Shown here one piece after another: positions 548 through 15,545 of a stretch of DNA of 36,148 nt. The translations under genes and the position numbers were made by a program. Each line of letters opens with the position of its first letter. Positions within the stretch are counted from its first letter, which is position 1. The notes under the pieces are model-generated. The model had not been told where the DNA came from and ran no database searches. It was given only the letters and a program-made list of their open reading frames with translations. The DNA lies in the NCBI GenBank assembly GCA_051532055.1, contig JAOPTX010000044.1:98947-135094 (forward strand), given 5' to 3'. This stretch comes from Fibrobacterales bacterium (GTDB lineage: Bacteria > Fibrobacterota > Fibrobacteria > Fibrobacterales > JAOPTW01).

Positions 548-1768
548 TTAAAATGCGTATTGGATTCCAAGGAGGAGATCTGCTTGAGTATAATAATTAG
601 ATACTCCCATGAAGTCATCTATGCCACTATACCAGGTATCTCCAAAAAATTGATAGAGGTCAGGATTGTTTTGTGTACTTCGATAGAGGTAGTTAAAAGT
701 GAAGTTCCATTGTGTAGGTACAAACCAAATATCCTCCCATGAATCGGGAAAACCACCGGCAAGTTTAAAACCAAAGAGGTTGCTAAAGAATGAGTAGTAT
801 CGTATGTCAGCTGAACGATATTTGTCATCGGTGCTGTATTGCGCATAGATAAAATCCATAGAGCCTTGAGTGTAAAATCGGTGTCTCAGTCGTATATAGA
901 GTTCATCAGTGATGTGTTGAAAAAGTTTGGTATCGATAGTGTGTGACTTCATTCCCCAGCTATCATGGTAGTTTCGGTAGTGCACATTTATTGAACCAAG
1001 ATACTCATCAAAGAGTTCGTACCCTTGGATAATATTAGCAGAGAGGGCAATGCCTGTTTTTGCATCAGGTACACGCTCTTCTTTTGAATCGCCGTCTTCA
1101 AGGGTAACAGGGCGATAGGGGTGGCCAAGAAAACCCCAAGAGTCGATATAGTTACCCGAGAGACTAACCATGGTAAAAGGGGTGAGACTTTGTGCAAATG
1201 AAAAACTAAAGGAGCTAATGTTTTTATCTCCCCCAGGGGCAAACCCTTCGCGACTATGATAGGTATCAAAGAATCGACCATAGCTGGTGCTTATAGTGGT
1301 GTTGCGTTGGTTGAAATCTAATGCGACGTTGATACTCGGCGAATAAGAAGTGTAATCTGGTTCATGACTCATATAGAATCCGAGGCCAATGATATCGCCT
1401 TGATTATTTCGACTGACATTAAAACTTTCAGAAAACCGTATTTCTGGTTTAGTAGCACCAGATAGTGCATCAATAGGGCTATCTGGTTCTGATAGGAGTA
1501 AGGTTTTATCGTTAGATACCGTGTTTAATCTATTGTATCCAAGACCTCTACTCGCACCAGTCACTGCATCAATCTCTTGCTCATAAGAGATTGACCATAG
1601 TTCGTCCAGCCATTTCGTGAGAGCAAGAACAGGGGTATAGGCAGTTACCTGGTTTTTATCGGTATAGAAATGATAGCGCAAATTAAGTGAGCTCTCAGAA
1701 CCTGAAGCGAAAAGGGGAGCTACAATGAGGAGGGGAAAGACAAGGAAGATAACGACTTTAACAACCAC
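548..1768 (-). CDS. DUF3570-family putative outer-membrane beta-barrel with two flavinylation-type motifs
   Basis: DAVTGAS and DALSGAT motifs, SHEPDYTS, ERVPD, RNYHDSWG and SADIR segments typical of the family, C-terminal IQYAF. Start moved from 1798 to GTG at 1768, which has GGAGG 5 nt upstream and overlaps the end of the DUF4266 gene. Confidence 0.85.
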   Translation of the reverse strand: MVVKVVIFLVFPLLIVAPLFASGSESSLNLRYHFYTDKNQVTAYTPVLALTKWLDELWSISYEQEIDAVTGASRGLGYNRLNTVSNDKTLLLSEPDSPIDALSGATKPEIRFSESFNVSRNNQGDIIGLGFYMSHEPDYTSYSPSINVALDFNQRNTTISTSYGRFFDTYHSREGFAPGGDKNISSFSFSFAQSLTPFTMVSLSGNYIDSWGFLGHPYRPVTLEDGDSKEERVPDAKTGIALSANIIQGYELFDEYLGSINVHYRNYHDSWGMKSHTIDTKLFQHITDELYIRLRHRFYTQGSMDFIYAQYSTDDKYRSADIRYYSFFSNLFGFKLAGGFPDSWEDIWFVPTQWNFTFNYLYRSTQNNPDLYQFFGDTWYSGIDDFMGVSNYYTQADLLLGIQYAF

Positions 1769-1973
1769 ATCCACCTCCAGCACCCGCAGATCCACCAACT
1801 GAACCTTCTCTTCGAGGAAAGTTATGGCCTTCTAAGGTACTTTCAATAGGGTCTTCAGAGAGTTGCATTACAGGGTCACTCAGATATTCACGGTCCATTT
1901 GAGGAACCATTGCGCAATTGATTATACTTAAAAGTAACAGTACTAATAATAGTATATATGTTGTTCTTACCAT
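1758..1973 (-). CDS. DUF4266-family small lipoprotein
   Basis: Lipoprotein-like signal ending in Cys; REYLSDPVM and the diagnostic C-terminus REGSVGGSAGAGGGCGC. Confidence 0.9.
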   Translation of the reverse strand: MVRTTYILLLVLLLLSIINCAMVPQMDREYLSDPVMQLSEDPIESTLEGHNFPRREGSVGGSAGAGGGCGC

Positions 1974-2551
1974 CGTTCCTTCTTATGACAGGCATTCGTA
2001 GAACAGGTTTTCGTCTTAAAATTATATGTCGCTGGTATACGTTCACCATCTTCTTTCTCTAAATTTGTTTCTGCGAGTTCAACATTAATCGCACCATTTT
2101 TGTGGTAGAGCGTTGTACGGTAATGAGGAACGGAGTCATAGTCAAAAAGATCGGTGAGATATTCTTGGACTTCTGAAAAATCTGTTGATCCTATAAGGTG
2201 TGAGAGATCGGGGTAGAGTATAGAATCAGTTGAAGAATACTCAGTGTTAATTCCGCGAACAGTATGTATGGACAATGCATGGCAGTCAACACAGGTAATG
2301 ATACCATTTGGGTTGTATTTGTCAAAGGTGTTGTCTCTGTCGTCAAGGTGGAGGCGGTGCTCTCCTGTTTTTGGAAGAGCCTTATGGCAGGTATTACAGT
2401 TATTGGTCTCTTGCCACTCATGTGCCACTTCAGTTTTTGAAAGCTTTGCATTGAGTTGATTTGGGTCAGCATCGACGATGGTACAACTGCTCGCGAGAAT
2501 ACCAATGAACAGTGCGATTAAGGCACTTACTTTTAATTGATAGTGTATCAT
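1967..2551 (-). CDS. Multiheme c-type cytochrome lipoprotein (2x CxxCH + 1x CxxxxCH)
   Basis: Lipobox ASSC; CNTCH (2384-2398), CVDCH (2279-2293), CSTNACH (1985-2005); extra His residues (GEHRLH, YHKNG) as candidate distal ligands. Confidence 0.82.
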   Translation of the reverse strand: MIHYQLKVSALIALFIGILASSCTIVDADPNQLNAKLSKTEVAHEWQETNNCNTCHKALPKTGEHRLHLDDRDNTFDKYNPNGIITCVDCHALSIHTVRGINTEYSSTDSILYPDLSHLIGSTDFSEVQEYLTDLFDYDSVPHYRTTLYHKNGAINVELAETNLEKEDGERIPATYNFKTKTCSTNACHKKERW

Positions 2552-3450
2552 AGTGAATATACGATAGAAATATCTTTGAAGTTATCCTCTGACTCCTCAA
2601 TTAAAAATGGATCTCCGTTAAGATCCATTTCAACTGAGTGTATTCTTCCTCTAAATTCATCACCATCTTTATTGTCTTCAGTAAATTCAAAGTATACGGT
2701 ATAGGTACCCGGGGTAACTATCTCTTCATCTCTATTTTTTAGGTCCCAAGAAATTTCACGTTCACGATGATTTCTTGTAGTTGCTCCTGATATTCCGTCA
2801 GGCTCTAAATCACCAAGGCTGTTCATCCAATTAACAAGGTGTTTTTCTTCTTCCTCGCCTCTTGCATTTAACGTTTTAATAAAAGAGCCATCTTCTGTTA
2901 ATACATATACTGCAAAAACAAAACCTTTTCCTTTACCACTCATGGAATATTTTCCATCATAGGTTACTGTTGTATAGTGTATATTAATGGTTCCTGATAG
3001 TTCTGTCGGCTCTTGTGAAGATGAAAGTGGTTCCAATGAAGAACTACTTTCACTTGAGCTGATTTCAGATGATGAACTTCTTTTTTGGACTTTCTGTGAA
3101 GATGATTTCTCTATAGATGATGATGAAATGTTTTTATCATTAATGAGAGAGGATGAAATCTCTTCGCTGCTTATTGAACTGGAACTTGGCTCTTTCCTTT
3201 CATTTGAGCTCGGTTCTTTACTTTCTATTGATTGTGTGTGGTCTTTTTCTCCTTCAGAACTGCTAAACTCTTGCTTTAGTGATGAATCTTCACTTTCACT
3301 ACTTTCCGCTGCTTTAGCGAGTTGCTTCTCCATAGAACTCTCAATATCATCAGATGGAGCTAAAGTATTTCGCTCCGGAATAGTATCTTCAATTGTACAT
3401 GATACAAATGTGACTAAAGCGAGTATAATGCCATAATAAGCTATTTTCAT
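2548..3450 (-). CDS. DUF2271-domain lipoprotein with Ser/Glu-rich linker
   Basis: Lipobox FVSC; long Ser-rich linker; C-terminal domain FAVYVLTEDGSFIKTL...DGISGAT...SWDLKN...PGTYTVYFEFTED. Confidence 0.82.
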   Translation of the reverse strand: MKIAYYGIILALVTFVSCTIEDTIPERNTLAPSDDIESSMEKQLAKAAESSESEDSSLKQEFSSSEGEKDHTQSIESKEPSSNERKEPSSSSISSEEISSSLINDKNISSSSIEKSSSQKVQKRSSSSEISSSESSSSLEPLSSSQEPTELSGTINIHYTTVTYDGKYSMSGKGKGFVFAVYVLTEDGSFIKTLNARGEEEEKHLVNWMNSLGDLEPDGISGATTRNHREREISWDLKNRDEEIVTPGTYTVYFEFTEDNKDGDEFRGRIHSVEMDLNGDPFLIEESEDNFKDISIVYSL

Positions 3451-5951: not shown

Positions 5952-6674
5952 ATGGCCCTCCTACGCATTATGTATGTGTCTTCATTAGTAGTACTATTCA
6001 CTCACTGCGCTAGTAGCATTACCCCCAAAATTTCTTACAATGATCTCGGATCAGTAGAGAAGGTTGTGTATGGGGCAATAACGGGACTCTCATATGCTGA
6101 CCCACGAATAGAACTGCTGTATACTACTAATCTAAAGCCTGAAGGGACAATCTCAGAATGTAATACCTATTACACTCGTAACCCTGAAACTCATAAAATA
6201 GATACACTCTATTTTATTCAAAGAATAACAGGAAACCAACTTTTAATGCGTTCAATAAATTTATATGGCTCTAAAGTAAAAGAGTACAATGAAAATATTT
6301 TATTAAATAAACCACAAGTTATTGATCATATGCCTGGTCCAAAGGAAGAAGTACTGCGGAGTCTTGGATATATGCTTAAAAGGATTCCTGATACTACTAA
6401 AGCGGTTTATATTGGAACCCTTGATGTGAGCAATCTTCATGCACTTGAATCAGAAAGTGAGAATGAAAATGTTGATATTGCTGTTACCGACTCGAAAGTA
6501 CAGGTGGATTCATATTTGCAAAATATATTTATGAACTTCGACTTGTCGATAGCGGAAAACTACACATTAAATGTGATGAAAAATACTTATTCAGTAAAGA
6601 GTGAGGGTGTCATTGGGTCACGGCCAGTTCATGATGAGCTTCTTGACATCATTATGATCAAAAATATGGAATAA
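5952..6674 (+). CDS. Hypothetical lipoprotein
   Basis: 240-aa ORF, AAGGA SD, hydrophobic N-terminus followed by Cys (LFTHC); terminator downstream. Confidence 0.65.
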   Translation: MALLRIMYVSSLVVLFTHCASSITPKISYNDLGSVEKVVYGAITGLSYADPRIELLYTTNLKPEGTISECNTYYTRNPETHKIDTLYFIQRITGNQLLMRSINLYGSKVKEYNENILLNKPQVIDHMPGPKEEVLRSLGYMLKRIPDTTKAVYIGTLDVSNLHALESESENENVDIAVTDSKVQVDSYLQNIFMNFDLSIAENYTLNVMKNTYSVKSEGVIGSRPVHDELLDIIMIKNME

Positions 6675-6714: not shown

Positions 6715-6749
6715 AAAAAGTCAAATGAGTTCCTCATTTGACTTTTTTT
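6715..6749 (+). terminator. Intrinsic terminator (potentially bidirectional)
   Basis: AAAAAGTCAAATGAG-TTC-CTCATTTGACTTTTT perfect hairpin with T tract, 40 nt after the stop at 6674. Confidence 0.85.
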
Positions 6750-6985: not shown

Positions 6986-9727
6986 GTGAAAAAGAAAGCG
7001 CACAACACAAAAGTATCTAACGTATTTTCTAAACAGTATCTAATAATTGCAATGTTTTTATGTTTAGCAGTAATCGAAGTATATGCAAATCCAGTAATAA
7101 TCAATAGCTTTAATAGTGCCCAAGATTGGACGGGCTTGAAAACAACACCTCATGGACTCCCTATGGCCCGTAGTGGGTTCAATAACGTAAATATTGAAGG
7201 GGGAACTGTTGGATATGTGTATCTCTGGGGTGGAACGAATGGTAAGACTGGAGTCATTCAAATGGATGTCTCTGATCTCTCAGGTCTTGCTGACCTCGTT
7301 CTGACCAGTAGTGCTCCCAAAGATGTAGCGGAACATTTACATGTGAGTCTCTACGATGGGAACTGGCATACCGTAATCCTGGGCGATTATGGCTCCCTTC
7401 GCGGATCAATGTCGGATATTTCTATCCCACTTAAAGATTTTAATGCGAACCTTAGTTCAGTATCAACACTAAAACTTGAGTATAAAGCCCCAGGTTTTGT
7501 AGCTATGGAGCACCGCATTAATCACATAGAGGCATCGGGAATTGGTAATACTGCCCCTGTTGCTCAGGGTGAATCGTATTCTGTCACTGAAGACCACTCG
7601 CTTATTGTAAATGGAACGGGTGTATTGAGTAATGATAGCGATGCTGAAGGTGATGCATTGACTGCAACAATTACCAGTCAAAGTACTCAGGGAACAGTAA
7701 CCTTGAATAGTAATGGTTCATTTGTATTTGTACCTACCTATAACTTCTCAGGAGCAACCTCATTCTCTTATCGCGCATATGATGGAATAGCCTATTCAAA
7801 TACTACAGTGGTATCGATAACGGTTAATGGCGTTAATGATGCACCCATTGGGCGTTCAGATACTTATTCAACATCAGAAGATACTGACCTCTCTATTAGG
7901 GCACCCGGCGTATTAAGTAATGATACGGATCCCGATAATGATCCTCTGACAGTACAATTAATTTCAACGGTTTCCTCTGGTACACTTACTCTCGATAGTA
8001 ATGGTGCATTTGAGTATAGCCCCATCCCTGATTGGAATGGTACTACGCAGTTTAGCTATAGTGCATTTGATGGGGTAGCATATACTGACACCGTTGTAGT
8101 ACAACTTGTAGTAGCTTCAGTAAATGATGCACCGATTGCATTACATGACTCTTACTCACTGATGGAAGATTCAACACTTGTAATTACTGGCTCCGGAATA
8201 CTCGCAAATGATAGCGACCTAGAGGGGGATGCTCTTACTGCAATACTTAATTCAAATGTTACCAATGGCACATTACAATTACAATCAAATGGCTCGTTAC
8301 GCTATACTCCTGATGCAAACTTTTTTGGAAGAGATAGTTTTTCCTATACTGCCTTTGATGGGACAGATGCATCAAATGTGAGTTTTGTATTTTTTGATAT
8401 CGCAGGTCAAAATGATGCTCCAGTAGCACAAAGTGATAATGCATCGGTTTCTGAAAATGGTTCAGTAACGGTAAATGCTCCGGGGCTTCTCGGTAATGAT
8501 TCTGATGTTGATAACGACCCATTAACGGCAGAACTTGGTAATGATGTGACTCATGGTAGTTTAGTCCTCAATAGCAATGGCTCATTTACCTATACGCCTG
8601 ATCAATATTATGCAGGTACGGACTCATTTACGTATAGAGCAAAAGATGCGAGCTCATATTCAATTGGTACTGTAGTGACAATTTCTATTACTGCTATTGC
8701 TCCTATTATAACAGTACAACCACAAGATCAAAGTGTACTTGTTGGAGGAATGGCAACTTTTAGTATTAGTGCTGCCGGTTCTTCTATTCAGTATCAATGG
8801 TTTAAAAATGGGGTAGCCCTTTCTGGAGCAACGCAGGCTCAATATAACACTGCAGCTGCAACCATTGCAGATGATAGCACGCGCTACTCTGTAACTGTTT
8901 CAAACAGTGCAGGATCTATTTCAAGTAATAATGCGATTCTTTCAGTATCAACTATACCGGTACCACCTATTGTAATTACCCAACCTGTTTCTCAAACGAC
9001 GAAAGAAGGCAAAGCGATAGTATTGAGTTTGGTTGCGACAGGTACCGGCCCAATGTCCTATCAATGGTATAAAGATGGCGTTGTAATAGCAGGTGCAGTA
9101 TCAGATATGTATACCACTCCAGTACTTGATAGAACGGATGATAGCACCTACTTTTTTGCAATTGTAACAAATGCCCTTGGTGACGATACTTCAGATGTCG
9201 CACTACTTAGAGTATTGGCAACAGTGCCCGACAATAAAAAAATAGCAATAGCAGGTGAGTTATATGATGTGAATGGGACACCTCTTGGAAATCCTGTCCC
9301 TGTAGCAATAGACTTCTCTGTAACACTCTACAACGCAGAGGTTGGAGGGGATACGCTCTATACTGAACATTTTATGGCGAGTAATGGTGAAGCAATAACA
9401 GTGAGTGATGGACATTTTGTAGTACGTCTTGGGGAAGGAGTTGCTACAACAAATCTTCAACAGGTAGTGACTAATAATGCCCGCATATGGGTTGAAATTA
9501 CCGTAAATGATGGTACTCCTGATGTGCTTTCTCCACGAACTCCTATGACTGCAGCACCTTTTTCACTTGCAACACCGAATCCAATTAAAGCAACGTCAAT
9601 TGTGTTAGAAGCGGCAGGAGAACCAAATGTACTCGGAGTTACTGCAACAATAGGAACCTATTATGTGAATACTCTCGATGGCTCAACGTGGTTAAAAATT
9701 AATACTCAATGGATAATAGTACAGTAG
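6986..9727 (+). CDS. Large secreted adhesin-like protein: putative CBM-like N-domain, 4x Big_9/cadherin-like repeats, 2x Ig domains, C-terminal fibre-base-like module
   Basis: Signal peptide ending VYA; four 96-aa N[DT]AP...GVL.ND.D.[ED].D.LT...G.F.Y.P repeats; two P.I..QP...YQW.K.G Ig domains. Start set at GTG 6986 after GAGGGG. Confidence 0.85.
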   Translation: MKKKAHNTKVSNVFSKQYLIIAMFLCLAVIEVYANPVIINSFNSAQDWTGLKTTPHGLPMARSGFNNVNIEGGTVGYVYLWGGTNGKTGVIQMDVSDLSGLADLVLTSSAPKDVAEHLHVSLYDGNWHTVILGDYGSLRGSMSDISIPLKDFNANLSSVSTLKLEYKAPGFVAMEHRINHIEASGIGNTAPVAQGESYSVTEDHSLIVNGTGVLSNDSDAEGDALTATITSQSTQGTVTLNSNGSFVFVPTYNFSGATSFSYRAYDGIAYSNTTVVSITVNGVNDAPIGRSDTYSTSEDTDLSIRAPGVLSNDTDPDNDPLTVQLISTVSSGTLTLDSNGAFEYSPIPDWNGTTQFSYSAFDGVAYTDTVVVQLVVASVNDAPIALHDSYSLMEDSTLVITGSGILANDSDLEGDALTAILNSNVTNGTLQLQSNGSLRYTPDANFFGRDSFSYTAFDGTDASNVSFVFFDIAGQNDAPVAQSDNASVSENGSVTVNAPGLLGNDSDVDNDPLTAELGNDVTHGSLVLNSNGSFTYTPDQYYAGTDSFTYRAKDASSYSIGTVVTISITAIAPIITVQPQDQSVLVGGMATFSISAAGSSIQYQWFKNGVALSGATQAQYNTAAATIADDSTRYSVTVSNSAGSISSNNAILSVSTIPVPPIVITQPVSQTTKEGKAIVLSLVATGTGPMSYQWYKDGVVIAGAVSDMYTTPVLDRTDDSTYFFAIVTNALGDDTSDVALLRVLATVPDNKKIAIAGELYDVNGTPLGNPVPVAIDFSVTLYNAEVGGDTLYTEHFMASNGEAITVSDGHFVVRLGEGVATTNLQQVVTNNARIWVEITVNDGTPDVLSPRTPMTAAPFSLATPNPIKATSIVLEAAGEPNVLGVTATIGTYYVNTLDGSTWLKINTQWIIVQ
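7547..8698 (+). repeat. Four tandem 288-bp (96-aa) Big_9/tandem-95-type coding repeats
   Basis: Repeat starts at 7547, 7835, 8123 and 8411 (NTAPVA, NDAPIG, NDAPIA, NDAPVA) with exact 288-nt period; diverged at DNA level. Confidence 0.9.
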
Positions 9728-9730
9728 AAC

Positions 9731-9752
9731 ACCAGTAAACGAACCAGTAAAC
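9731..9752 (+). repeat. 10-bp direct repeat ACCAGTAAAC x2
   Basis: Copies at 9731-9740 and 9743-9752 in the 37-nt gap, directly before the AAGGA SD of the protease gene. Confidence 0.7.
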
Positions 9753-9764
9753 AAGGATTTAAAA

Positions 9765-12700
9765 ATGAAAATATTTAGACCATTTCATTTTTCCGTATTG
9801 TGGTATGTTGTTTGTATAGTGGTCATGGCTATACAAACTGCGTGGGCTGTTGCACCGGAAGAAGAGAACACAGTACCCTTAATGTCAAATAATCTATTTG
9901 AACGAGGGTTAAAAAATGTTAAAAAAGTCACGATTGATGATCTTAAAAATGTAGGAGAATCAATTATGGCACGTACAGTCTCACTTAATGGAGAGATTAA
10001 GTACGAAATAATTGAACGGCTCAACACTCGATTTAAAGAACATTTCTCTATAATGGAAGAAGTGTCTACTAAAAAAGATAAGCGGGGTAATACTCATATT
10101 CGTTTACAGCAGCGCTTTAAAAACGTTCCTGTTATTGGTGGCGATATCATTGTACATATAAATAAAGGCAATGAGGTTTATGCTGTTTCAGGTGGAATAG
10201 CAAAAGATCTAAACCTTGAAGTTAATTTGTTTAAAATATTGATGAGTGTAAATGGCCCTCTAGTGGGGAGCTTTAGTAATGAGTCAATGGATATGGAATC
10301 CGAAGAGTTAACTGTTTTTAATGGTTCCGTAGCATGGCAAAGAATATTTCGTGATACAACAAAAACAGTTGAAGGCCGATGGAAAGTGTATGTTGATGCC
10401 TTGACTGGTGAAGAATTGTTTATTGAAAACCAGATAATTCATGCCGCTCCTAGCGGTGGACAAACTCACATGGTACATGGTTCTATACTTCCTGATGAGG
10501 GGGGGCATAGAGTTACCATAGATGGATGGGTTGATATCCACACTAATTATTTCTTGTATAATGCCATCAATAAATGGAAAATTACAAATGATAATACGAA
10601 TGATTGGGAATTTAATTCGAGTGATGATTGGGGAGGGAACGATCCTGCAGCAATCTCATTAGCAAAGAATATTGAAGTAATTCAAGAGTATGTTTCAAAT
10701 GTAATTGGATTGAATAGTTATGATGATAATGGTACACCGATACATTGCCATGTACATACTGGTTCGAATTATGTTAATGCCTATTGGAATGGGAGAGGGT
10801 TATACTTTGGTGATGGAAACGGTACAACTGCAAACGCATTAACGGTTCTCGATATTGCTGCTCATGAATATGGACATGCAATTACCACATACTCTTCGAA
10901 TTTAGTTTACTCCTATGAATCAGGGGCATTGAATGAATCTTTTTCAGATATAATTGGTGCTCTTGTCGAATTTGATACACAAGCGGATGGGCGTACTGAG
11001 TATCCAGATAGTCGAGGTGGAGAATCTGATTGGCTAATCGGAGAAGATAGTTGGGTAAGTAGAGATGCATTGAGAGATATGCAAAACCCGAATCGTTTTA
11101 GTCAACCAAAGTTTTATAAAGGTCCTTATTGGTATTCAGGAAGTAGTGATAATGGTGGTGTTCATACTAATAGTGGGGTGCAGAACTATGTTTTTTACCT
11201 TCTTGCTGAGGGTGGTGCTGGAGTAAATAATGGTACCTCATACTCGGTCATAGCAATGGGCATTGAACAGGCTGGTGAAATTGCGATGCATGCTAATATG
11301 TATAACCTCTCAAGTAATGCGACCTATGCTGATTCTCGAGATGCATGGATTCTCGCAGCAACATCTCTTGGATATAGTACTGTACAGGTTCAGGCAGCAT
11401 GGGCAGCAGTTGGTGTTGGAGCTGTTGCACAAACATCTTACCTTGAAGTCCTTCAAGATTCAGTTGTATTTGATACTGTCCCCGTTGGGATAATCGATAC
11501 GCTTTCAATTACGTTACGTAATAGTGGAACCTATGAAACGGTGGTCAACTCACTCTCAAGTTCAAATAACCATTTCAGCCTTGTGAATCATTCTCCATTT
11601 GTTGTACCAGCTCAGGGAGAGTATATACTTAATATTATTTTTACACCAACAGCCTCGAGGTCTGAGTATGGAGAGTTGACTATACAAAGTTCCGCTGATG
11701 ATTATCCTGAAATTATAGTACCACTGGTTGGAGAGGGTATGGAGCCTCCCCAATTAGAAATTTCAAAAAATGCGATAGAAGTGATGGTACTCCCTAATGA
11801 GATATATATCGACTCTTTGATTATTACAAATAATGGTAGTGCTCCTTTAGAGTATCACCTTGAAACGAATAATACTCAGTATGTGCCCTTAAACCCCGTC
11901 ACTCAGGTCTACCCAGATTCCTGGCATCAACCGACACCTAAAGGGGGCGTAGATGCTGTTCTTGGTAATCCTATAGCGGTCAGTACCGGGGGGCCGGATG
12001 CTTATGGCTACCTATGGGAAGATTCAGATGCCCGTAGTGGTATATCTTTTAGTTGGGAAGATATCAGCAGTAGCGGTATCATTCTCGATTCGATTTCTGT
12101 GTGTGATGATTGTTTCGAATCAGTGACCCTTCCTTTTGAATTTGAATTCTATGGAAATCGTTTTTCTTCAATGCACGTGAGTTCTAACGGAACGATAAAT
12201 TTTGGTGTGGGACTTTCGCCGTTGGGCAATGTAGTATTGCCTTCGACCGTTGCCCCTGAAAATCTCGTTGCTGGACTATGGGATGATCTTGTTCCACGGA
12301 TATCGGGTACAATCTATATGGAGTCATTTTCAGATCGAGTTATTGTACAGTATGACTCGGTTCGGCAAATAGGCACCCTTAATGATTTTACATTTCAGAT
12401 GGTACTCTATAAAAATGGCAGTATACAATACAATTACCTTAAGGTAGAAGGGAGCGCAGCAAGTGCTACTGTTGGCATTCAAAATGGAATGCAAAATGAT
12501 GGATTAACAGTAGTCTACAATGCCCCATATATTCACGACTCTCTTTCGGTATTGATCTATACTGGATCTACTTTCATAGATCTTGAGCACGATAATGGTG
12601 TGGTACGAGCGGGAGAGAGTGATACTGTTGCCATAGCTTTCAATAGGGTAGGAATGGCTGAAGGTGTCTATACGGCAGACCTGCAATTGACTCATAATGA

Positions 12701-13556
12701 TCCAGATATTGTAAATCCGGTAATTATTCCCGTTTCCCTTATTATTGAGTCAACCCCTGTTTCAAAGCTCGAAGCATCGGTTACTTCGATTACTTTCGGT
12801 GCGGTACCACTAGGTCGATCAAACGTTAAAGAGTTGGTTTTACGGAATTTTGGGAATAGTGATACCCATATATCTCAATTCCAATGTTCTATAAGTGGTA
12901 TTGGAACTAATATTGTAGTTCCGGTAACTATAGCTGCCCATGGTGAATATCGAGTACAGCTTGAATATACGCCAAATCAGGTTGAACAAAGAGTTGGTCA
13001 AATAGTTATTAGTAGTGATGCATCTGGAAATTCTCCATTGGAAATTGATATTGCAGTTGAGTCATATCAAGCAGCAGATTTATACGTGTCACCAAGTGAA
13101 ATTAACCGAGCAACGCTTGCAGGGAAAACCATAGTTGAAAAAGGCACGCTCATAAATAATGGGGGAATACCTCTTAATTTCGTTATTGGATTTGAGAACG
13201 TCTCTATTGGTGATTCAATCGTCTGGATAACAACACCAACCGACTCAGGAGTAATTGTCCCTGGACTTTCACATGAAATTAATGTTGAATTAAATGCTAA
13301 TCAATTGTCCCCTGGAATGTATAGTGCGCTTATTACAATTGAATATAATGGTATTGATGGTGTAGCGTTTGATTCGATACCAGTAACGTTTACCGTTATA
13401 GATTCTGCTGTGACCGGTTCAACTCATGTTCATTCTGTTGGCCCTGGGCATGAATCAGTTATGAGTGGTTCAAAATATCAAGCGTATGGCGTATCTCTTG
13501 GTAGTGCAGTAAATGGAACCTTTCAAGGGCGTCGATACAAAGCCTATATACGGTAA
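9765..13556 (+). CDS. Secreted M4 (thermolysin-family) zinc metallopeptidase with FTP propeptide, ASH/choice-of-anchor-D-like Ig domains and a nidogen-like domain
   Basis: Signal peptide ending AWA; HIRLQQRFKNVPVIG (FTP); NAYWNG, HEYGH (10863-10877), GALNESFSD and DNGGVHTNSG; repeated L.N.G Ig domains; GGPDAYGY...LPFEFEFYG...VSSNG...LWDDL domain. Confidence 0.92.
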   Translation: MKIFRPFHFSVLWYVVCIVVMAIQTAWAVAPEEENTVPLMSNNLFERGLKNVKKVTIDDLKNVGESIMARTVSLNGEIKYEIIERLNTRFKEHFSIMEEVSTKKDKRGNTHIRLQQRFKNVPVIGGDIIVHINKGNEVYAVSGGIAKDLNLEVNLFKILMSVNGPLVGSFSNESMDMESEELTVFNGSVAWQRIFRDTTKTVEGRWKVYVDALTGEELFIENQIIHAAPSGGQTHMVHGSILPDEGGHRVTIDGWVDIHTNYFLYNAINKWKITNDNTNDWEFNSSDDWGGNDPAAISLAKNIEVIQEYVSNVIGLNSYDDNGTPIHCHVHTGSNYVNAYWNGRGLYFGDGNGTTANALTVLDIAAHEYGHAITTYSSNLVYSYESGALNESFSDIIGALVEFDTQADGRTEYPDSRGGESDWLIGEDSWVSRDALRDMQNPNRFSQPKFYKGPYWYSGSSDNGGVHTNSGVQNYVFYLLAEGGAGVNNGTSYSVIAMGIEQAGEIAMHANMYNLSSNATYADSRDAWILAATSLGYSTVQVQAAWAAVGVGAVAQTSYLEVLQDSVVFDTVPVGIIDTLSITLRNSGTYETVVNSLSSSNNHFSLVNHSPFVVPAQGEYILNIIFTPTASRSEYGELTIQSSADDYPEIIVPLVGEGMEPPQLEISKNAIEVMVLPNEIYIDSLIITNNGSAPLEYHLETNNTQYVPLNPVTQVYPDSWHQPTPKGGVDAVLGNPIAVSTGGPDAYGYLWEDSDARSGISFSWEDISSSGIILDSISVCDDCFESVTLPFEFEFYGNRFSSMHVSSNGTINFGVGLSPLGNVVLPSTVAPENLVAGLWDDLVPRISGTIYMESFSDRVIVQYDSVRQIGTLNDFTFQMVLYKNGSIQYNYLKVEGSAASATVGIQNGMQNDGLTVVYNAPYIHDSLSVLIYTGSTFIDLEHDNGVVRAGESDTVAIAFNRVGMAEGVYTADLQLTHNDPDIVNPVIIPVSLIIESTPVSKLEASVTSITFGAVPLGRSNVKELVLRNFGNSDTHISQFQCSISGIGTNIVVPVTIAAHGEYRVQLEYTPNQVEQRVGQIVISSDASGNSPLEIDIAVESYQAADLYVSPSEINRATLAGKTIVEKGTLINNGGIPLNFVIGFENVSIGDSIVWITTPTDSGVIVPGLSHEINVELNANQLSPGMYSALITIEYNGIDGVAFDSIPVTFTVIDSAVTGSTHVHSVGPGHESVMSGSKYQAYGVSLGSAVNGTFQGRRYKAYIR

Positions 13557-13592: not shown

Positions 13593-13623
13593 AAAAAAAG
13601 CCCGATTAGATTCGGGCTTTTTT
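13593..13623. terminator. Bidirectional intrinsic terminator
   Basis: AAAAAAAGCCCGA-TTAGAT-TCGGGCTTTTTT between convergent genes. Confidence 0.88.
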
Positions 13624-13735: not shown

Positions 13736-14713
13736 TTATTGATCACAGAGTTCGAGAAAATTTGAAATTCTAAAAATGGCAACATACTCTCGGAATTTAA
13801 ATACGCGGTCAAAGCGTTCTGGTTCAACACAAATAATACTTTCAGAATGAGTAGAGTGCATAGATTTAATTTTTTTCACATCTTCTCGAACGACTCCATT
13901 TTCGGTGAGTGCATCGAGAGCATCTCTAAAAGTGGGCTCATCCATTGGGGCATCCGATTTTTTAAGAGCAAGCGCCAATTGATTAATAGTGATCTGGAGT
14001 TCGTTACCTTTTTTTGAACCCTTTTCAAAGCCAACGTATTTTAAAAATTGAATTGCTTGAACTTGTTCTTCTGTAGTAACAGTCTCTTCTGGGACACGTG
14101 TGTGATTGTGTCTTGCATAGAGATATTGGTAATACATTTCAATAGCTTCAAAATCATTTACTATGACTACATCAGGGTCCATTTCGATGAGGCTCACATT
14201 GAAGAGCCCTGAAAGGAGACGTCGTGTACCATCTTGGGGGAGCCCATAGAGAGACTCGACCTCTGCCACAATTTGAGAAATCAGAATTTCGTCTTCACCT
14301 TTGTGTGTTATGAGTACTCTCAAAAGTGAGGGGAGGCAGTGCTTTAAATCTTGCTGATATTTTTTATGAGTGGTATCACGGAGTCGTGAAACCAGAATTT
14401 TAATAATACTGACTAACCAGGGGGGGATTTTTTTATATGTCGCTTCGAGTATAGCTCGATTGATGGTGACTACTTGCGTCTCTTGAGTGGCCATTGCCGA
14501 TGCAGAGCGTGGCTCATTGTCAAAGAGCGAAAGCTCACCAAGTACAGCGCCAGGGCCAAGGGTTGCAACGGTAACACTCTTCTCGCCCTCTTTAATGATT
14601 ATGTCTACTTCACCACTGCGAATGATATACATCTCATTGCCCAAATCACCTTCGGCAAAGAGATATTCATTCGCATTAAAAGTACCACTCGCATTGGTTG
14701 CTGGTTTTGACAT
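13736..14713 (-). CDS. Cyclic nucleotide-binding (Crp/Fnr-like) protein with extended C-terminus
   Basis: LFAEGDLGNEMYIIRSGEV...GELSLFDNEPRSASA phosphate-binding cassette; C-helix ILVSRLR. Confidence 0.88.
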   Translation of the reverse strand: MSKPATNASGTFNANEYLFAEGDLGNEMYIIRSGEVDIIIKEGEKSVTVATLGPGAVLGELSLFDNEPRSASAMATQETQVVTINRAILEATYKKIPPWLVSIIKILVSRLRDTTHKKYQQDLKHCLPSLLRVLITHKGEDEILISQIVAEVESLYGLPQDGTRRLLSGLFNVSLIEMDPDVVIVNDFEAIEMYYQYLYARHNHTRVPEETVTTEEQVQAIQFLKYVGFEKGSKKGNELQITINQLALALKKSDAPMDEPTFRDALDALTENGVVREDVKKIKSMHSTHSESIICVEPERFDRVFKFREYVAIFRISNFLELCDQ

Positions 14714-14861
14714 GTCTCACATCTGGTATATTCTTATGCTCTATTATAGTAAAAAATAGGTTTGAACGCTAGAAGAGTTTCTGGATATTTATTCTCATAG
14801 AGTCATATCTATAAATACCTAGTAGCTAGGGGGCAATTATGGTGTACTGAGAGGCATTTGA

Positions 14862-15545
14862 TTAGGTATTGCAAAACTGTTCGAGTTCTTCAATATCTGA
14901 AATAGTCATTTTTTGATTGTATTGATCCTCAGACATTAATATTCCTTTTAATTTTAGAGTATTAATTGCAGTTTGAAACTGTTTTTTGGTAGCTCGAGTG
15001 AGATAGCAATACTCATCAACAAACTTCATGGTATCAAAATTCATCCAATTTGCTTTCATGATTTCGCTGTCTTCTTTACACTTGGAGAGCAGAAAGAGTC
15101 CGAGACTTTTATCCACTTTTTTAAAGAGTGGTTTATCAACCATCTTATTGGTATTTCTAATGCGTGAGGCAATAATTTTGATAACTGCAGTGAGCCATCC
15201 AGGTAGCTTTTTAAGCATGAGCCCAAAGGTCATTTCATTAATGATAGTTACTGTAGTGGGTACAGTTGCAGTCGCTGTTGCTGAACGGGGTTGGCGGTCT
15301 ATGAGGGCCATTTCACCCATAATAGCACCTTGCCCAAGTCTAGCTAATTCAATATCTTCGGGAGGTCTTCCTGTAGATATTGCTATTTCACCATTCTGGA
15401 TTATAAAAAGCTCTTTACCGACATCACCTTCGGCAAAGAGTTCTTCATCAGTCTTGAAAGTTTTTTTGGGAATAACAATCTTACGGCGTCCGGTTTTAAG
15501 CGGGCTTGAAGAATCTCCTAAATTGACTCTCGCGTTAGCTTGCAT
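14862..15545 (-). CDS. Cyclic nucleotide-binding (Crp/Fnr-like) protein
   Basis: LFAEGDVGKELFIIQNGEI...GEMALIDRQPRSATA; C-terminal wHTH-sized region. Confidence 0.88.
   Translation of the reverse strand: MQANARVNLGDSSSPLKTGRRKIVIPKKTFKTDEELFAEGDVGKELFIIQNGEIAISTGRPPEDIELARLGQGAIMGEMALIDRQPRSATATATVPTTVTIINEMTFGLMLKKLPGWLTAVIKIIASRIRNTNKMVDKPLFKKVDKSLGLFLLSKCKEDSEIMKANWMNFDTMKFVDEYCYLTRATKKQFQTAINTLKLKGILMSEDQYNQKMTISDIEELEQFCNT

Follow-up and report, generated by a model that had tools for sequence, protein, structure and literature searches.

Two adjacent genes in a 36,148-nucleotide stretch of DNA from a Fibrobacterales bacterium (GenBank assembly GCA_051532055.1, contig JAOPTX010000044.1, positions 98,947 to 135,094; the whole stretch is hereafter the window) encode large signal-peptide proteins, P1 and P2, whose C-terminal tails raise the question of what they do and whether they belong together. 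The initial annotation, made from the sequence alone, had seen a fibre-base-like end on a glycan-binding stalk (P1) and a short beta-rich tail on a protease (P2), and had proposed a two-part docking and export device. We find that these tails, here called module A and module B, are a real and conserved pair, undescribed in its C-terminal form as far as the literature was searched, and that the pair is neither a mosaic adhesive trimer (MAT) fibre nor standard type IX secretion system (T9SS) cargo. The literature search, in which subscription journals were thinly covered, returned no description of C-terminal A/B modules. The tails probably form a cognate donor-strand docking pair that joins proteases to binder stalks and descends from a MAT-like fibre base and its partner.

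Identity of the C-terminal modules

Module A comprises the last 166 residues of P1, and its homology to a fibre base covers the first 114 (A1). An AlphaFold model of the module had a predicted local distance difference test score (pLDDT) of 90 and consisted of a beta-sandwich, A1, and a separate small knob, A2. The NCBIfam family Bdello_MAT_N (NF053851) matched A1 weakly (E 0.0011; 18.8 bits against a cut-off of 60) and matched 13 of 58 A members at E ≤ 0.05, the best at 5e-6. An hhalign comparison of A1 with 12 N-terminal MAT-like bases of the same phylum, chosen independently by the Bdello_MAT_N model, gave 99% and E 6e-18 over 107 columns. On the strength of these two results A1 is, to judge from sequence comparison, a MAT-like fibre base relocated to the C-terminus, which bears out the fibre-base-like end proposed for P1.

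A homologue search of 1.84 billion representatives returned 495 relatives at E ≤ 0.001, of which 150 were listed. Among these listed matches, A lay within 25 residues of the C-terminus in 150 of 150, the last ~45 residues (A2) were present in 110, and more than 100 residues of cargo preceded A in 119. When 26 A proteins were scanned for cargo at E ≤ 1e-9, ten carried PA14, F5/8-C or LamG domains and the rest, bar one with an M14 peptidase, only Ig-type stalk families. In six loci (L086–L090, L129) giant proteins, of 3600–3900 residues where measurable, end in A, and four of these loci have a second A protein of ~1000 residues alongside.

Neither tail matched Pfam at E ≤ 0.1. By sequence, A had no PDB match below E 0.25; by fold, the matches were no more than generic Ig-like ones (best Z 6.9), no Foldseek PDB match reached E ≤ 0.001, and A2 was barely covered. 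The one BFVD match, at 2e-5, was to an uncharacterised cyanophage protein, with minor-tail rows weaker; PHROG matches were scattered, each family being hit by at most 2 of 58 members; and A was absent from the viral contigs and phage records searched, as was N-terminal-type A from the plasmids searched. Atlas look-ups were uninformative (0.83 and 0.76), and locus scans with broad alignments gave no usable pattern. A narrower scan returned 11 genome loci (10 assigned to Fibrobacterota or a lower rank, 1 to 'uncultured bacterium') and 3 metagenome loci.

N-terminal MAT-like bases often head S74-capped fibres, and in the N-terminal fibre loci of the phylum a small gene for a ~50-residue Gly-rich peptide with a C-terminal-domain (CTD)-like tail often adjoins the A gene. 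Small signal-peptide proteins with such a peptide, most with a CTD-like tail, stand beside N-terminal MAT-like fibres in seven loci (L081, L094, L135, L136, L144, L149 and L150). The genome studied here also holds a MAT-like protein (L079; G000:C105:1-3208) with an N-terminal A base, a pentapeptide-repeat shaft and gaps filled by runs of N, and with no small adaptor gene directly upstream.

Module B is a Gly-rich tail of ~46 residues in which IG(x)SA...G turns separate three predicted strands and which contains an internal repeat (hhalign E 1e-5); the short beta-rich tail first described on P2 thus holds up. Iterating B from the window tail over 40 fetched loci gave 19 hits, 19 of 19 within one residue of the C-terminus, with the ending Y/F-x-hydrophobic-x-L-K/R. 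P2 itself is assigned to Peptidase M4 by family features (FTP propeptide, M4, M4_C, HExxH, and downstream Glu and His motifs), and 15 of 17 B proteins scanned carried an M4, S8 or C25 peptidase; another had a precomputed C1 domain and one was a fragment. A B-like motif was also found just behind the signal peptide of five giant proteins encoded directly after single A genes, with pairwise E values of 3e-4 to 1e-2 and a profile score of 17.1 against a best of 15.5 in 150 shuffles. These giants (L049, L052, L054–L056) are RCC1-repeat or RHS-type proteins; in L056 a small gene, possibly an immunity gene, follows the RHS gene. Both modules occur without cargo, as six proteins consisting of a signal peptide and A1 and as one 112-residue protein consisting of a signal peptide and B.

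Co-occurrence of the modules

A whole-genome profile search of 296 genomes of the phylum gave 25 B hits at E ≤ 0.01, spread over 22 genomes, and at E ≤ 0.001 it detected A in 53, a count that takes in weak forms with N-terminal A and one unpublished genome; none of the claims made here depends on that genome. An earlier tally of A in 106 of 296 genomes was rejected because its alignment had taken in an Ig domain. One weak B hit (genome G026, E 0.008) was dropped before counting, leaving 24 strong hits (E < 1e-8). An A module lay on the same contig and within 13 kb for 22 of these, and the 23rd is the far end, beyond a contig break, of a gene that starts after an A gene. Strong C-terminal A was present in 20 of 21 B genomes compared with 36 of 295 genomes overall; the largest family (151 genomes) had neither strong form, and B occurred in one or two copies per genome. 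The informative part of this co-occurrence is that the whole-genome search gave almost no B away from A. Two metagenome loci outside the training set likewise had B next to A, though they were fetched through A.

The 57 fetched loci comprised 23 with C-terminal B beside A (in the orders A-B, B-A, A-B-A and B-A-A), 5 with an N-terminal B-like motif after A, 1 orphan B, 14 with two A genes and no B, and 14 with a lone A. Given this tally and the near-total absence of B away from A, B needs A, and A needs no detectable B. All 13 C-terminal-B loci with a knob-bearing A had a single A gene, and 7 of the 10 with a knobless A had two, often including one stand-alone A1 protein. Two A-tailed genes followed by giant proteins of up to 5000 residues or more, with no B detected, were seen in eight loci (L042, L044–L047, L050, L053, L058); several of these giants begin with a beta-helix-type start, and three of the loci share a similar C-terminal domain.

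The genome holds a second A/B pair. A gene for an F5/8-C stalk ending in A (contig C4, 199734-202019) precedes an M4 gene that is cut short by the end of the contig, and B lies at the end of contig C84, as the 23rd hit above. The C4 and C84 pieces match residues 1-1102 and 1996-2572 of one 2572-residue M4+S8 protein in a sister genome. The pair as a whole, with its M4+S8 protease split over two contigs, extends over G000:C4:199734-205377 and G000:C84:16855-18587. With most B hits near A, varied cargo on both modules and this second pair, the expectation that the tails would be adjacent across genomes and recur on other cargo is supported.

Gene order is common to kin and one B is an orphan fragment, as might be expected if the tails were functionless vestiges of a jointly inherited fibre-base/adaptor cassette. 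Yet across many families the two modules retain 20-55% identity and have Gly, Glu and Arg positions that never vary, while cargo and gene order do, and we regard loss of function as very improbable.

Predicted contact between A and B

One protein, P0130, is a natural B-linker-A fusion (hhalign E 1.6e-4); it is a singleton, with no relative found at near lengths. It was folded with AlphaFold using alignment rows for A only and B as a single sequence, since MAFFT would not place B rows on its B part. In the model, B residues 54-67 form a strand with pLDDT ~60 and the remaining N-terminal part is below 50. Eight PDB entries appeared both in the fusion's top-50 list and in that of A alone, and in 8 of 8 the fusion gained 11-18 aligned residues and started 11-22 residues earlier, within the B strand. 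For 4yok, A alone aligned over 135-226 (84 residues, Z 6.8) and the fusion over 122-226 (99 residues, Z 7.4, root-mean-square deviation (rmsd) 3.4). Because the shared alignments extend N-terminally into it, the model places the B strand at the first-strand position of the sandwich: the middle strand of B is predicted to sit as the missing first strand of the Ig-like A1 domain.

Stand-alone A1 proteins have no residues of their own for that place. The predicted donor-strand placement fits the genetics, in that stand-alone A1 would be left unfilled and the repeated strands of B could serve two or three A modules. The docking half of the device first proposed for the window is therefore partly supported, by adjacency, recurrence and the predicted A-B contact in the fusion; the export half is not, as the tails look like a docking pair and not an export machine.

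Export and proposed mechanism

No sorting signal was recognized on either protein. The A and B tails had no match in Pfam or NCBIfam to the T9SS domains TIGR04183/PF18962 or to FlgD-Ig. A profile of the genome's own T9SS-like tails, which finds 73 of 3751 tails, missed the A tails and the paralogous B tail at E < 10 and gave E 3.7 for the P2 tail. These searches uphold the earlier statement that P1 and P2 lack a known sorting tail, and neither protein shows a CTD, a lipobox or a barrel. The genome does have SprA, PorV-family genes and no fewer than 14 CTD proteins above the cut-off, and all 24 of the B or B-like genomes tested had a match to SprA_N, which in 23 exceeded the cut-off. In T9SS substrate recognition, the CTD is bound to PorV inside SprA (PMC10994853), and Por-type tails are described in Chitinispirillum (PMC4814513).

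Alternatively, each of A and B might be a non-standard C-terminal signal in its own right, serving export or anchoring by T9SS or another outer-membrane route, with the two kept together by co-regulated cargo and not by binding. In most members both are strictly C-terminal, the Y/F-x-hydrophobic-x-L-K/R ending of B bears what we take to be a loose resemblance to the last strands of CTDs, SprA is present, and many A loci lack B. A1 also aligns with the last ~90 residues of PorU (1068-1158; Z 6.0, rmsd 3.3, 86 aligned), a match that is tied with many unrelated Ig folds. Independent signals should, however, recur on unlinked genes, as the T9SS-like tails of this genome do, whereas the few B copies nearly always lie by A. 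B-like motifs at N-termini and a B-A fusion also exist, and the stand-alone A1 and B proteins have no cargo to export. We therefore consider independent signals unlikely.

If A and B dock on each other, Sec would carry both chains across the inner membrane and A would oligomerise, probably as a trimer like that of MAT fibres, with the A2 knob helping. A single B would then insert its two or three repeated strands into grooves left open in two or three A1 domains, so that several stalks share one protease at their foot. The complex would reach the cell surface or the medium, most likely via the SprA/PorV machinery; this is the weakest step and is put forward tentatively. There the stalk heads would bind a surface or a glycoprotein and hold the protease in place.

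Docking might also serve merely to clasp a periplasmic or vesicle-borne complex, or A might dock on a third, unlinked surface protein while B lets the protease ride on A. The lack of a CTD, lipobox or barrel on P1 and P2 would suit such an arrangement, and a search of this genome for a small gene encoding a Gly-rich-peptide adaptor gave none at E < 1. On this account, the double-A loci that lack B imply other partners for A. The MAT surface partner is moreover called unidentified in PMC10769870. No third gene was seen recurring by the fetched loci, where no systematic search was made. Long Ig/cadherin stalks with lectin heads and M4, S8 or C25 proteases are typical of extracellular proteins, and their presence on A and B points outside the cell; the account seems to us improbable.

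Several observations weigh against donor-strand docking between A and B. The docking model is one intramolecular fold with B as a single sequence, at modest confidence and with no control strand; one of the three B strands is ordered in it, and AlphaFold may seat any amphipathic strand in an open groove. As to co-occurrence, the training alignment, itself gathered beside A genes, already included 21 of the 24 B hits; kin genomes are not independent, so that the Fisher P for co-occurrence is overstated; the 24th strong B hit (genome G134) is an orphan fragment that lacks both a start and an A; and A is frequently found without detectable B, in the double-A and lone-A loci, many of them short contigs. 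The M14 peptidase on one of the 26 A proteins means that the split between binder and enzyme is not absolute, and the N-terminal B-like motifs reach only the E values given above. By eye, B looks like the Gly-rich peptide of the small T9SS-tagged partners of N-terminal fibres, but in profile comparison the similarity was not significant (profile probability 0.3-1%, best single E 0.006). SprA was counted only in A/B genomes, and its presence may not discriminate; the two-gene unit contains no anchor, CTD or outer-membrane gene.

Organization of the locus

P1 and P2 lie on the same strand, with 37 nucleotides between their open reading frames (ORFs), and the unit is flanked by hairpins (Table 1) of -16.5 kcal/mol upstream (z -7.6) and -17.7 kcal/mol downstream (z -6.1), neither equalled in 200 shuffles (0/200 each). 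A simple terminator scan picked up neither hairpin. The ORFs and hairpins corroborate the earlier description of two closely spaced signal-peptide genes between terminators. The N-terminal signal peptides of both proteins were assigned by eye. P1 starts with GTG behind a GAGGGA site, and the spacer holds a short direct repeat, CCAGTAAAC twice, ahead of the P2 ribosome site. The P1 head (residues 35-187) had no Pfam match and no PDB sequence match, so that the 'glycan-binding' label given to P1 is not supported for P1 itself; an in-genus paralogue has an F5/8-type C domain at the head position.

Table 1. Features of the P1-P2 unit and its flanks (positions in the window)
Feature	Position	Strand	Basis
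Terminator hairpin of upstream gene, A- and T-tracts	6715..6747	.	folding
Gene P1, 913 aa: signal peptide, head, Ig/cadherin stalk, module A	6986..9727	+	ORF, domain search
P1 Sec-type signal peptide	6986..7087	+	sequence, by eye; same start in orthologue L038
P1 head domain (F5/8-type C at this place in paralogue)	7088..7546	+	no domain match
P1 stalk: 4 Big_9/cadherin-like repeats, 2 Ig domains	7547..9226	+	domain search
Module A1: MAT-fibre-base-like beta-sandwich, predicted without own first strand	9227..9568	+	AlphaFold, profile comparison
Module A2: small C-terminal beta knob	9593..9724	+	AlphaFold, homologue search
Intergenic spacer, 37 nucleotides, AGGA site	9728..9764	+	sequence
Gene P2, 1263 aa: signal peptide, M4 (thermolysin-type) pro-protease, ASH/Cep192-type Ig domains, module B	9765..13556	+	ORF, domain search
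P2 M4 catalytic region, HExxH at 10863	10557..11417	+	domain search
Module B: ~46-aa Gly-rich tail, three predicted strands, internal repeat	13416..13553	+	profile
Terminator hairpin ending the two-gene unit	13594..13623	.	folding

Upstream of the unit, with the terminator between, positions 5952-6674 encode a 240-residue protein with a lipoprotein-like N-terminus and no Pfam match, which is also upstream in the sister genome. Positions 548-3450, on the minus strand, hold genes for a DUF3570 barrel, a multiheme-cytochrome-like protein and a DUF2271 protein. Convergent with P2, positions 13736-15545 encode two tandem proteins with cNMP-binding (cyclic nucleotide monophosphate-binding) domains.

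Significance and comparison with known systems

The literature leaves open what the MAT base binds (PMC10769870). The loci offer a small, soluble A/B pair, stand-alone versions, a natural fusion and a specific prediction: strand complementation, with one B per two or three A. If the docking reading is true, they would represent a new Gram-negative route by which binder and protease are assembled into one complex with no scaffoldin, as well as a natural docking tag of small size. A broader proposal, which we hold to be possible though speculative, is that A/B is a portable donor-strand clasp in which one three-stranded B locks into the open grooves of an A oligomer. Attached to one end or the other of proteases, lectin stalks and giant RHS/RCC1 proteins, it would build cellulosome-like extracellular complexes in Fibrobacterota, and B-type peptides would be the missing partner of the MAT base.

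Like the T9SS type A CTD (TIGR04183/PF18962), A and B involve a C-terminal beta-sandwich and signal-peptide cargo in a host with SprA and PorV; unlike it, they have no sequence match to Pfam, NCBIfam or the genome's CTD profiles, and a 45-residue knob follows A1 in most members. In the donor-strand complementation of chaperone-usher and type V pili, a short peptide supplied in trans fills out an Ig-like fold, and in cohesin-dockerin assembly a modular tag pair couples enzymes to a binding scaffold. Only if the A/B model is right would the analogy hold, through a strand supplied in trans and a tag pair joining enzyme to binder. No relation by sequence was detected (no Pfam match), the locus lacks a chaperone, an usher and scaffoldin repeats, and the model does not call for a polymer.

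The small T9SS-tagged partners of N-terminal MAT-like fibres (L081, L135 and L144) resemble the present loci in placing a gene for a ~50-residue Gly-rich peptide beside an A-type gene, and an in-register likeness via the N-terminal B-like forms is weak (15.7 against a best of 11.4 in 100 shuffles). There, however, a bare CTD carries the peptide at its N-terminus and the fibre starts with A, whereas here the cargo is large, lacks a CTD and bears either module at its C-terminus, B being the last element of P2. Thus, of the earlier suggestion that both module types come from phage-fibre-like loci, the part concerning A1 stands on base homology, and for B the homology to the small partners is only suggestive.

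Also close are the MAT fibres of Bdellovibrio bacteriovorus, in which, according to Caulton et al. 2024 (PMC10769870), the N-terminal domain is invariable, has no PDB homologue and binds a surface element that the authors call unidentified. A1 is homologous to their conserved base NF053851, though below the family cut-off, and both systems combine a conserved base with variable adhesive heads. The base is N-terminal in MAT fibres, however, and C-terminal in P1 and its listed relatives. The P1 stalk is a beads-on-a-string array of Big_9/cadherin and Ig domains with no phage-fibre shaft and no S74 chaperone, and, unlike MAT fibres, A/B loci fuse the partner tail to proteases encoded by the next gene.

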